Shown here piece after piece: positions 4,489 to 8,006 of a stretch of DNA of 42,832 nt. Position 1 is the stretch's first letter; every line of letters starts with the position of its first letter. A program made the translations under genes and the position numbers. The notes beneath the pieces were generated by a model, which had not been told where the DNA came from, made no database searches, and saw only the letters and a list, made by a program, of their open reading frames with translations. The stretch is from contig JAQBBQ010000139.1 of NCBI GenBank assembly GCA_032125995.1, positions 1 through 42,832 on the forward strand. The letters run 5' to 3'. This stretch comes from Betaproteobacteria bacterium (GTDB lineage Bacteria; Pseudomonadota; Gammaproteobacteria; Burkholderiales; SG8-39).

Positions 4489-6315
4489 CTAACCCGTCGC
4501 CTGCCCGTGCAAATGTCGGTGGATGCGTTCGGCGATGGCTCGGCTAATACCTTCGATTTGTGCGATTTCATCGACGGCCGCAGATTGCACGCCGCGCAGT
4601 CCGCCAAAGTGCGTCAGCAGCCGCTGGCGTCGTTTGTCGCCGATACCCGGAATCTCGGCGAGCGATGACACGGTGCGGGCGCGACCCCGGCGCGCGCGAT
4701 GGCCGACGATCGCGAAGCGGTGCGCCTCATCGCGAATGCTCTGGATCAAATGCAGACCCGGGTCATGCGCCGGAAGCGTCATGCATCGCGCCTCGGCCTC
4801 CACAATCAGCTGTTCGAGCCCCGGCTTTCGCGCCGGTCCTTTGGCGACGCCGATCACGCTGATGTCGCTCATGCCGATTTCAGCGAGCGATGCGCGCGCC
4901 GCACTCACCTGCCCCTTTCCCCCGTCGATCAGGATCAAGTCAGGAATTTTCCCGCCGTCGACCGCCAGCCGCTTGTAACGCCGACGCAGCGCCTGCCGCA
5001 TCGCCGCGTAGTCGTCTCCGGGGGTCACGTCACGAATATTGAAGCGGCGGTACTCACCGTTTTGCATCGCATGCCGATCGTAGACCACGCACGAAGCGAC
5101 GGTGGCCTCGCCCATCGTGTGGCTGATGTCGAAACATTCGATGCGCTCGACCGATTCCGGCAAATCCAGCGCCTGGCGCAGTGCGGCAAGCCGACCTTCC
5201 TGTGTCGCGCGTTCGTGGGCGCGACGCGTCAGCGCGAGTTGCGCGTTCTTGCGCACCATCTCGAGCCACATCCGGCGTTCGCCCTGCTGAGGTGCAAGGA
5301 CCTGGCTGCCCTGCGGCGCCCGCGCCGCGAGCGCTTCGCCCAGCGCTTCACGGTCAACTTCATCGCTGGTCAGGATCAGGCGCGGAACCGGATGGTCGAG
5401 ATAGTGCTGTTCGAGAAACGCGGTAATGATCTCTCCCGGCATGGCACCCTCGGCGTTGGCCGGAAAGAAGCTGCGATCGCCGATATGGCGACCGCCGCGG
5501 ATCATGACGAGATTGACGCAGGCAATGCGGTCCTCGACCACGGTCGCGACGACATCGGCATCCACGCCGCGCTCGCTCTCGACGTACTGGCGCGCCTGGA
5601 CGCTTGACAACGCGCGGACCTGATCGCGGACCGCGGCCGCCTCCTCGTAGCGCCGCGCTGCCGCCGCAGCGGACATTCGATCGCTCAACGAGCGAATGAC
5701 ATCGTCTTCACGTCCTTGCAGAAACAACTCGGCATGGCGCACGTCCTGCCGATACGCTTCGGCACCGATCTGACCCGTGCAGGGCGCCGTGCAGCGTCGA
5801 ATCTGATACAGCAAGCACGGGCGCGCGCGATTCTCGAACACCGAATCCTCGCAGGTCCGCAGCCGGAATACGCGCTGCAATGTGTGAATCGCCTCGCGCA
5901 CCGCATAGGCGTGCGGGAACGGACCAAAGTAACGGCTCTCGCGTTCGCGTGCCCCTCGGTGAAAACCGATCCGCGGAACCACATGACCGCTAATCACCAG
6001 GTAGGGGTAGGACTTGTCATCGCGGAACAGAATGTTGTAGCGCGGCGCGAGGCTTTTGATCAGATTGTTCTCGAGCAGCAGCGCCTCGTCCTCGGAGCGG
6101 GTCGCCGTCACCTCAATCGAGGCAATCTGCGAAATCATCTTCTGCACGCGCGGGCTGTGCGCCGAGCGCCGGGTGAAGTAGCTGATGACGCGCTTGCGCA
6201 GGTCGCGCGCCTTGCCGACATAGAGCACCTCCCCGCCCGCACCGAGCATCCGATACACCCCGGGCAAGTGCGGCAGTCCGCGCGCGAAGGCTTTGGGCTC
6301 GAAAGTTGCGTTCAT
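4489..6315 (-). CDS. uvrC: Excinuclease ABC subunit C (start placed at ATG 6315)
   Basis: GIY-YIG (PGVYRM...YVGKA), RYNILFRDDKSYPY, ECFDISHT, IDGGKGQ, RDEAHRFAI, C-terminal HhH. Confidence 0.97.
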   Translation of the reverse strand: MNATFEPKAFARGLPHLPGVYRMLGAGGEVLYVGKARDLRKRVISYFTRRSAHSPRVQKMISQIASIEVTATRSEDEALLLENNLIKSLAPRYNILFRDDKSYPYLVISGHVVPRIGFHRGARERESRYFGPFPHAYAVREAIHTLQRVFRLRTCEDSVFENRARPCLLYQIRRCTAPCTGQIGAEAYRQDVRHAELFLQGREDDVIRSLSDRMSAAAAARRYEEAAAVRDQVRALSSVQARQYVESERGVDADVVATVVEDRIACVNLVMIRGGRHIGDRSFFPANAEGAMPGEIITAFLEQHYLDHPVPRLILTSDEVDREALGEALAARAPQGSQVLAPQQGERRMWLEMVRKNAQLALTRRAHERATQEGRLAALRQALDLPESVERIECFDISHTMGEATVASCVVYDRHAMQNGEYRRFNIRDVTPGDDYAAMRQALRRRYKRLAVDGGKIPDLILIDGGKGQVSAARASLAEIGMSDISVIGVAKGPARKPGLEQLIVEAEARCMTLPAHDPGLHLIQSIRDEAHRFAIVGHRARRGRARTVSSLAEIPGIGDKRRQRLLTHFGGLRGVQSAAVDEIAQIEGISRAIAERIHRHLHGQATG

Positions 6316-6398
6316 GGCACGGGCGAGAGCCTGCATTCTAGCGTTAGGTTCATGATTTCGTATAGAATTCCTGCCCTTTCCGAAGTTCGAGCACCACC

Positions 6399-6965
6399 AT
6401 GGCAAAAGTTCTCGCGACCGAAATTCGCGTTGGCAATCTGATCGAATGGGACAAACGCGTATGGCGCGTCCTCAAGTGCTATCACGTCCATGTCGGCGGG
6501 CGCGGGGGCGCGTTCATGCAAGTCGAAATGAAGGACATCGAGGTCGGCACGAAGGTCAATCAGCGGTTTCGAACCGATGAAAAGGTGGAGCGCGCGTTTG
6601 TCGAGCCGCGCGAGATGGCGTACCTGTACCAGGACGGCGAGAGCTACGTGTTCATGGATAAGCAGAACTACGAACAACTGCCCTTGTCGGCCGATTTCCT
6701 TGAAGGGCAATCAGACTACCTGCTGCCCAACACGGAAGTTCAGATCAATTTCCACAATGGGCGTGCCATTGGCATCGAACTGCCGCCCGCGGTCGTGTTG
6801 GCCATCGTCGACACCGAACCCGGGATTAAGAACGCCACCGCCACCACGAGCTTCAAGCCCGCTACGACGGAGACCGGGCTCGTGGTCCTGGTGCCGCCGT
6901 TCGTAAATCAAGGCGAAAAGATTCGCGTCAACACCAACGATGGCAGCTACATGGAGCGCGCCTGA
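6399..6965 (+). CDS. efp: Elongation factor P with atypical loop HVHVGGRGGAF (Arg35)
   Basis: 188 aa EF-P fold motifs: YLYQDG...FMD...YEQ, TEPGIK...KPA...TG...VPPFV..GE.I.VNT..G.Y.ERA. Confidence 0.93.
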   Translation: MAKVLATEIRVGNLIEWDKRVWRVLKCYHVHVGGRGGAFMQVEMKDIEVGTKVNQRFRTDEKVERAFVEPREMAYLYQDGESYVFMDKQNYEQLPLSADFLEGQSDYLLPNTEVQINFHNGRAIGIELPPAVVLAIVDTEPGIKNATATTSFKPATTETGLVVLVPPFVNQGEKIRVNTNDGSYMERA

Positions 6966-6977
6966 AGCTGGCGTGAA

Positions 6978-8006
6978 TCAGGCGAGCGAGTCGAGGGTCG
7001 CGGCGGCCTGCCGAAAGGCGACACTCTTACGCAGATCGCGACCGTGGCGCGACCACATGCGCTCCGCGCGCTCGGGATTCGCGAGCGAAACCGGCCCCAG
7101 CGCATCCAGCAACGCGTCCTGCCCGGCGGGATCTTGGCACAGCAGGACCATGTCACAGCCGGCCGCCAGCGCAGCGCGCGCGCGGTCGGCAACGCCACCG
7201 GCCGTGCTTGCACCTTCCATCGACAGATCGTCGCTGAAGATCAGCCCCTGGAACCCCAACGCGCCGCGCAACACGTTCTGCAACCAGTAGCGCGAATAGC
7301 CGGCGGGTTCCGCATCGGCTTGCGTGAAGATCACGTGCGCCGGCATCACGCCTTTGAGCCCGGCCGCGATGACAGGGCGGTACGGCACGAGGTCTTTGCG
7401 CATGATCTCGTCGGTCTGACGCTCGTCGCGCGGCACGCTCACGTGCGAGTCGAGTGCGGCGAACCCATGGCCCGGGAAATGCTTGGCGACCGCAGCCACC
7501 CCGCCGTCGTCTAGGCCCTGAACAAGCGCCGCCGCGAGCGCACCCACGGCACCCGGGTCGAAATGCAGCGCACGGTCGCCGATCACTGAACTCGAGCCGT
7601 AATCGAGATCCAGAACAGGTGCAAAGCTGAAATCGACGCCGTGCGCATCGAGCTCTGCGGCAATCGTGTAACCCACCGCACGCGCAGCCGCTGTAGCCGC
7701 CCCGTGGTCACGATCCCATAAACGGCCCAAGGTCCGCATCGGCGGTATTGCCGTAAAGCCTTCTCGAAACCGCTGCACGCGCCCGCCCTCGTGATCGACA
7801 CAGACGAAAAGCCGCGGCTCGCGGAGCGCCGCAATTTCCGCGGTGAGCGCAACCAACTGCTCCGGGCTCTCGAAATTGTGGGCGAACAAGATCACGCCAC
7901 CCACCGCGGGGTGCAGCAACCGGCGCCGGTCGTCGTCGGACAGCGCGGCGGTGGCTGGATCGAGGACCACAGGTCCGAGGGGAAAGCGTTTCCTTATGCG
8001 TCGCAT
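6978..8006 (-). CDS. nagZ: Beta-N-acetylhexosaminidase (GH3)
   Basis: GGVILF, VDHEGGRVQRF, KHFPGHG...DSH, FSDDLSMEGA. Confidence 0.96.
   Translation of the reverse strand: MRRIRKRFPLGPVVLDPATAALSDDDRRRLLHPAVGGVILFAHNFESPEQLVALTAEIAALREPRLFVCVDHEGGRVQRFREGFTAIPPMRTLGRLWDRDHGAATAAARAVGYTIAAELDAHGVDFSFAPVLDLDYGSSSVIGDRALHFDPGAVGALAAALVQGLDDGGVAAVAKHFPGHGFAALDSHVSVPRDERQTDEIMRKDLVPYRPVIAAGLKGVMPAHVIFTQADAEPAGYSRYWLQNVLRGALGFQGLIFSDDLSMEGASTAGGVADRARAALAAGCDMVLLCQDPAGQDALLDALGPVSLANPERAERMWSRHGRDLRKSVAFRQAAATLDSLA

Follow-up and report, generated by a model that had tools for sequence, protein, structure and literature searches.

The efp gene at positions 6399..6965 (+) of the window, by which we mean the whole 42,832-nucleotide stretch of betaproteobacterial DNA analysed here, probably encodes the sole functional EF-P of its cell, a member of a betaproteobacterial subfamily with the loop HVGGRGGA that would work with an unmodified arginine. 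An earlier note on this DNA had described an EF-P with a proline-free, Arg-tipped, extended loop (Arg codon 6501-6503) lying 83 bp from a divergent uvrC, and the sequence agrees with that description. It had also called the protein a distinct EF-P subtype, and the loop, the HMM scores and a maximum-likelihood (ML) tree bear this out, as the protein is neither EarP-type, nor EpmAB-type, nor EfpL.

The open reading frame, whose translation contains KCYHVHVGGRGGAFMQVEMKDI, specifies an EF-P of 188 aa. The three-domain EF-P architecture (KOW-like plus two OB domains) is present and the Pfam models match end to end: KOW-like domain I covers residues 6-63 (6414..6587, +; PF08207, EFP_N), OB domain II residues 71-124 (6609..6770, +; PF01132, EFP) and the C-terminal OB domain III residues 132-187 (6792..6959, +; PF09285, Elong-fact-P_C). 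The protein passes the NCBIfam efp equivalog TIGR00038 with 231.6 bits against a cut-off of 185.8. An AF2 model has a pLDDT of 90.6 overall and a mean of 81 for the block 31-40, and its top PDB matches in Foldseek are EF-P structures (TM 0.7-0.87). The window gene is a bona fide EF-P. Relief of polyproline stalls may be ascribed to it by analogy with the Nitrosomonas communis orthologue, for which this function has been published, as seen in E. coli.

The beta3-beta4 loop, H31-V-G-G-R35-G-G-A38 (6489..6512, +), is read from sequence and alignment as eight residues with an Arg at the tip. Arg35, encoded by cgc at 6501..6503 (+), is the equivalent of E. coli K34, and the residues around the loop are K-C-Y-H-V-H-V-G-G-R-G-G-A-F-M-Q-V-E-M-K. 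Proline is absent from the loop, hence there is no proline-stiffened PGKGP loop of the kind found in the unmodified actinobacterial EF-Ps, which is stiff where the window loop is glycine-rich. Across 190 distinct clade members, whose identity to the window protein is 53-96%, no stretch with conservation of at least 98% is longer than residues 28-48. H29, V30, H31, G33, G34, R35, G36, G37 and A38 are invariant, the position three residues before the tip Arg (V32 in the window protein) is Val in nearly all members, and each loop residue from 31 to 38 is either invariant or at least 95% conserved. Given this conservation the loop is not a product of chance, and it is under strong constraint.

To relate the protein to other EF-Ps, we reconstructed an ML tree from 79 rows and 189 columns under LG+G4, rooted at the midpoint and including one EfpL sequence (E. 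coli). In this tree, in which the bootstrap had not fully settled, the HVGGRGGA clade (99/95) is sister (90/92) to a Lys-type clade (100/100) with the loop HVKPGKGGAF, while the opposite side of the midpoint root holds the EarP-type clade (100/100) together with E. coli EF-P and E. coli EfpL. Identity to the window protein is 55-57% for the Lys-type sister clade, 44-46% for a wider Lys-type group, 38% for E. coli EF-P, 35% for E. coli EfpL and 29-36% for EarP-type EF-Ps. One complete genome of the same order, G042 (55% identity), falls in the sister clade; EarP was not found in it, and its efp has no link to uvrC. The named relatives nearest to this clade are Nitrosomonas sp., Nitrosomonas sp. 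Nm51, N. marina and several gammaproteobacterial MAGs. The scaffold of the window protein had been compared by the earlier note to alphaproteobacterial-type EF-Ps. The scaffold itself holds up, as the nearest relatives are Lys-type EF-Ps with the same ...GGAF.Q.EMK surroundings; the label fits only in part, since the closest of these are named Nitrosomonas or gammaproteobacterial, while the TQPGKGGAY loops of Rickettsia and Sphingomonas resemble the wider sister group.

The HVKPGKGGAF proteins of N. marina, Nitrosomonas sp. Nm51 and the gammaproteobacterial MAGs share the scaffold around the loop with the window protein but have a Lys tip, retain the Pro and carry a seven-residue loop. When H-V and G-G-A-F are held in register, H-V-H-V-G-G-R-G-G-A aligns against H-V-K-P-G-K-G-G-A, with the extra residue before the tip. 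AF2 models of the window protein and of a Lys-type protein (P0297) were made from one 110-sequence alignment and compared as DSSP strings: in the former beta3 spans 20-31, coil 32-37 (VGGRGG) and beta4 starts at 38, while in the latter beta3 spans 19-29, coil 30-36 (KPGKGGA) and beta4 starts at 37. These predicted strand limits suggest that the hairpin gains one residue overall, has an additional strand pair and ends in a glycine-rich tip of six residues. The HVGGRGGA subfamily would descend from a Lys-type EF-P in which the tip K became R, the loop proline was lost and one residue was inserted ahead of the tip. We infer that it arose within or near the Nitrosomonas/Nitrosospira part of the order.

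A different ancestry, in which an EarP-type EF-P of the rhamnosylated betaproteobacterial clade diverged after the loss of EarP, is very improbable. Both types have an Arg tip, and when the HVGGRGGA and EarP-type clades are forced together, a group that was named after the tree had been seen, lnL is 45.1 lower and the AU test does not reject the joint tree (p-AU 0.112). However, the two clades fall on opposite sides of the midpoint root, the HVGGRGGA proteins have a supported Lys-type sister to which they are far more similar in sequence, and the two types occupy different chromosomal loci and coexist in three sampled genomes (G037, G077 and G355) and in N. communis. Apart from the Arg tip, the EarP-type EF-P (KSGRN; P. 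aeruginosa structures 3OYY and 6J7M), which is the usual betaproteobacterial EF-P, differs from the window protein in its seven-residue loop, its dependence on rhamnosylation and its position beside earP.

Three further kinds of EF-P were seen in the order. A family designated f47 has the loop V-K-S-G-T-G-G-G-A-F, with neither Lys nor Arg at the tip position, in a protein 38% identical to the window protein whose loop looks one residue longer (L157:8186-8731(-) in G070 and L160:8009-8554(-) in G366; also in G123, G212, G253, G331 and G401). None of the genomes with this type is among the EarP-positive rows, and G366 holds both it and the HVGGRGGA type. A second, very divergent EF-P-like gene with the loop R-V-A-A-G-K-F-G-S, 29-32% identical to the window protein (L162:7715-8269(-) in G188, with similar second copies in G074, G126, G172, G215 and G315), accompanies the HVGGRGGA type in several genomes that are not among the EarP-positive rows. 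Finally, the Burkholderiales MAG G051 carries on a 30-kb contig an EF-P with the loop Y-P-G-K-G-T-P-V (L158:8026-8586(+)) besides an EarP-type efp; we take this loop to be of the Caulobacter/Agrobacterium kind, and the gene could be a transfer or a binning contaminant.

The Arg-tipped EfpL (YeiP; E. coli structure 8S8U) invites closer comparison. According to Sieber et al. 2024 (PMC11611912), the canonical loop has seven residues (KPGKGQA), EfpL has a nine-residue loop that is tipped by Arg and has an invariant Pro at the third position ahead of it, and the operational definition of EfpL is a loop exceeding seven residues with Arg at the tip. The same paper finds R33 of E. coli EfpL unmodified by MS and proposes that the unmodified Arg reaches the CCA end. 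Its table gives Vibrio EfpL loops as TPGGRGG(A/Q/S)K, with PGGRGG in at least 106 rows, so the GGRGG tip is common to the HVGGRGGA type and a branch of EfpL. Loop length and Arg position had been said to match EfpL. The Arg of the window loop is indeed preceded by four residues, as in EfpL, but it is followed by three, as in ordinary EF-P, and this makes eight residues against the nine of EfpL.

That the window gene encodes an auxiliary factor of the EfpL family and not a primary EF-P is hardly credible, even though it may fall under the operational definition (aligned with Lys-type relatives, the loop has eight residues; the length entry in the published table is 'N/A'), the (V/P)GGRGGA tip is almost that of Vibrio EfpL and the type occurs as a second copy in N. 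communis (PMC11611912). Both EfpL/YeiP models stay under their cut-offs (NF003392, 151.4 versus 216; TIGR02178, 139.1 versus 264) whereas the efp model passes, and the EfpL-invariant Pro is replaced by Val. E. coli EfpL, the one EfpL sequence in the tree, branches elsewhere, and the window protein is the only EF-P of its genome, where EfpL accompanies a primary EF-P. The VGGRGGA proteins are also annotated as EF-P in the published table. Its Supplementary Data 1 lists this loop at least for Nitrosospira briensis C-128, N. lacus and N. multiformis ATCC 25196, in rows that show one protein each, tip R and no EpmA, EarP or YmfI, and for N. communis, in a row with two proteins and EarP, the other loop being KSGRNSS (PMC11611912).

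At the window locus, uvrC (4489..6315, -) is a conserved divergent neighbour by tblastn synteny. Its start at 6315 was taken from the conserved MNATFEP, and relatives' UvrC proteins align from residue 1-5 of that version. The divergent uvrC-efp spacer (6316..6398) is 83 bp long with 53% GC; no ORF fits in it, and a simple promoter scan of it found no sigma-70 consensus. Downstream lies nagZ (6978..8006, -), the first gene of a convergent nagZ-acpS-pdxJ-recO-era block. The arrangement is shared by relatives: uvrC adjoins an efp of the HVGGRGGA type in 14 of 15 loci; in the fifteenth, the 2.45-kb contig stops at efp. As far as the contigs extend in these 15 loci, pgsA-uvrC is divergent from efp, and most also have the convergent nagZ-acpS-pdxJ-recO-era block. 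In further loci uvrC is upstream of efp in 76 of 80. A recent foreign origin of efp was considered and rejected, as its GC3 of 0.762 lies within the 0.70-0.81 of its neighbours and gives no signal.

Betaproteobacteria had been said to carry earP-efp near nagZ and uvrC, and the HVGGRGGA gene to have replaced that module in place; the loci of relatives do not support the first statement and contradict the second. None of uvrC, nagZ, pgsA, acpS, pdxJ, recO and era was seen at any of 21 EarP-type efp loci, in fetched stretches of up to about 9 kb a side (less at contig ends), and at these loci earP is directly beside efp. Moreover, the three genomes examined that belong to the window's own family and have the EarP type (G014, G023 and G006) show nagZ next to uvrC at a distance of 114 bp to 1 kb, with no efp between them. 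The nagZ|uvrC junction thus either holds an HVGGRGGA-type efp or is empty. Because the EarP-type loci lack the uvrC/nagZ block and there are empty nagZ|uvrC junctions, the two efp types occupy different loci. An orthologue of the 1166-aa gene next to earP-efp in G023 lies in G000, the window's genome, at C210:33152-36655; its neighbours there are different and include neither efp nor earP. As this site has a single conserved flank, the comparison is weak.

Distant members of the clade, including Nitrosospira, have a 215-250-aa uracil-DNA-glycosylase-like gene between uvrC and efp (L128:2263-2982(-), L067:3185-3832(-), L070:9841-10515(+), L069:9818-10564(+) and L071:2165-2851(-)), which is absent from the window. 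Its name is a reading of the sequence, which contains the motifs C-x-x-C-P-R-L and G-A-N-R-T-G-R-P-F-T-G-D. Nitrosospira has a porin-like gene downstream of efp instead of nagZ. Several neighbours were considered as possible modifiers, namely the uracil-DNA-glycosylase-like, cation-efflux-like, glyoxalase-like, aldehyde dehydrogenase and porin-like genes (names in distant members being readings of translations). They were rejected as candidates because none is conserved across the clade.

The HVGGRGGA loop recurs well beyond the window. Among the best 120 database matches (78-95% identity), 118 have HVHVGGRGGAF; one of the others reads HAGGRGG and the second is out of register with the fixed reading window. 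The organisms named among these 120 are Burkholderiales or Betaproteobacteria MAGs. Representatives of 50%-identity clusters still have the loop down to 59-61% identity. A scan of one genome per species gave at least 557 related stretches, and HVHVGGRGGA is present in all 80 loci kept from it, including those of the cultured Nitrosospira multiformis Nl7, Nl18 and Nl12, Nitrosospira sp. Nsp14 and Nitrosovibrio tenuis Nv1 (78-79% identity). A single efp, of this type, is present in each of four Nitrosospira/Nitrosovibrio strain genomes and in one MAG (L120), and EarP was not found in any of the five. The Nitrosospira EF-Ps, listed in the published table with the VGGRGGA loop, thus resemble the window protein in loop and in being the sole EF-P, and in the N. 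multiformis strains also in having uvrC upstream; they are unlike it in the gene downstream.

EF-P matches in 41 close relatives are bimodal. Sixteen relatives have the HVGGRGGA type (66-100% identity), and 20 have a 28-37% identical protein with a classical K-S/G-G-R-N/S loop. EarP was found in one of the 16, G037, which holds both efp types, and in 19 of the 20, the exception, G020, being a genome of 78% completeness. Of 401 genomes sampled from the same GTDB order, about 75 have the HVGGRGGA type (73 full or near-full and two partial, G377 and G397), and EarP turned up in 310 of all 401 genomes but in only three of the about 75; the counts of 75 and 310 were read off two tables. Each of the three EarP-positive genomes (G037, G077 and G355) has a second efp. 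Four of the sampled genomes carry an unpublished flag: G227, G049 and G397, which have the HVGGRGGA type, and G314, which has EarP. The HVGGRGGA subtype is common in the order and anticorrelated with EarP. In G377, a one-contig genome in which EarP was not found, the match covers residues 1-92 only (L164:7382-7654(+)); this partial efp could be a frameshift, an assembly error or a pseudogene.

The window's genome follows the same pattern. G000 comprises 3.44 Mb in 298 contigs and is 91.5% complete, and protein and family searches agree on a single efp. The families searched were EarP, EpmA, EpmB, EpmC and deoxyhypusine synthase; YmfI, a generic short-chain dehydrogenase, was left out. EarP (PF10093) was not found in this 91.5%-complete genome, and as no ORF fits in the uvrC-efp spacer either, the absence of earP reported earlier stands. 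The EarP search works, since the same search found EarP in 20 of the 41 relatives. Family searches likewise returned no EpmB, EpmC or deoxyhypusine synthase from the 91.5%-complete assembly. All matches to the EpmA model are below cut-off: four lie in open frames of 510-601 aa, which we read as aminoacyl-tRNA synthetases, and the fifth is weak (E 0.475) in a 253-aa frame. The EpmAB(C)-type Lys EF-P (KPGKG with EpmA and EpmB) is thus unlike the window protein, whose tip is Arg and whose genome yielded neither EpmB nor EpmC. Although the genome is incomplete, the absences are backed by the recurrence of the same pattern in relatives, and no known activating enzyme turned up in G000 or in nearly all genomes with this efp type.

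Direct evidence on how such a protein works comes from N. communis. Brewer et al. 2026 (BMC Biol 24:51; PMC12931083) cloned the EF-P of strain Nm2, whose loop they give as 'HVGGRG-GA', and their Supplemental Table 1 scores it 'functions without modification +' and 'rhamnosylated -'. In E. coli delta-efp delta-uup, colony size with this protein was 71.4% of that with the E. coli EF-P control; it rescued TPPH better than E. coli EF-P did and LPPP poorly, and co-expression of S. oneidensis EarP caused no mass shift (PMC12931083). The protein (UniProt A0A0F7KHW6; RefSeq WP_046850460.1 by matching loop) has a loop identical to the window's, differs from it at six of 58 aligned residues in domain I and, like it, is Arg-tipped without a cognate known modifier. 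These tests agree with the modification-independent activity proposed, as one of two options, for the window protein by the earlier note, and by analogy with this orthologue in E. coli the window protein may be active without modification in its own host as well. We consider that an unmodified Arg on a slightly longer, glycine-flanked hairpin most likely serves, as proposed for EfpL, and that neither rhamnosylation nor beta-lysylation would be needed.

Several observations temper this reading. The poor LPPP rescue by the N. communis protein could mean a missing native modification or a host mismatch (PMC12931083). N. communis also has EarP and an EarP-type EF-P (KSGRNSS), so that its HVGGRGGA protein is a second EF-P, whereas the window's genome has the HVGGRGGA type alone. 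The proven unmodified actinobacterial EF-Ps have stiff proline loops, the reverse of a glycine-rich one. AF2 confidence is lower in the loop than in the rest of the model, and the genome is only 91.5% complete.

The main competing explanation, which we regard as unlikely, is that the loop Arg is activated in the native host by an enzyme of a new kind, with GGRGG as its recognition element. The EF-Ps encoded by about half of genomes fit none of the known modification classes (Brewer & Wagner 2024, PMC11388002; PMC12931083; 2026 review, PMC13602936), and unmodified types are indistinguishable from unknown-modified types on genomes (PMC11388002, PMC12931083). The strict invariance of the loop and the poor LPPP rescue in E. 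coli would also suit such an enzyme. However, no conserved candidate lies beside efp, the neighbours being uvrC, the uracil-DNA-glycosylase-like gene, and nagZ or the porin; the orthologue works well in E. coli without modification (PMC12931083); and the GGRGG-tipped EfpLs belong to a family that is unmodified in E. coli (PMC11611912). More doubtful still is the specific version in which an enzyme whose gene lies elsewhere than beside efp puts a new modification on the Arg in the native host, and the activity in E. coli would be only partial, as the poor LPPP rescue might hint. A milder version is more likely, in which an EfpL-like second copy, such as N. communis has, displaced the EarP/EF-P pair and is now the sole EF-P in roughly a fifth of the sampled species. 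At its fixed uvrC-linked site, the HVGGRGGA type coexists with earP-efp in few genomes and mostly stands alone. This would fit either a second copy that became the only one once earP-efp had been lost, or an exchange of the gene among relatives through recombination in its flanks, which are conserved.

Activation of EF-P is usually presented as modification-dependent, and the modifying enzymes are discussed as drug targets. Many betaproteobacteria of soil and freshwater, the ammonia oxidiser Nitrosospira among them, have the HVGGRGGA type as their only EF-P, and therefore a whole lineage can do without EarP. VGGRGGA loops are already in print in the supplement of PMC11611912 and have been partly characterised since January 2026 (PMC12931083), and the window adds no mechanism beyond the latter study. 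In the literature searched, the HVGGRGGA subtype as a lineage's sole EF-P, its link to uvrC and its anticorrelation with EarP are nowhere discussed, and a full-text search on Nitrosospira EF-P gave nothing relevant. What the survey adds is that the subtype is common, EarP-anticorrelated, tied to uvrC and derived from Lys-type EF-Ps. Taken together, these four points make Nitrosospira, which is cultured, a practical native system for settling the modification state of the loop Arg, and proof of that state in a native host is the remaining point of real value.
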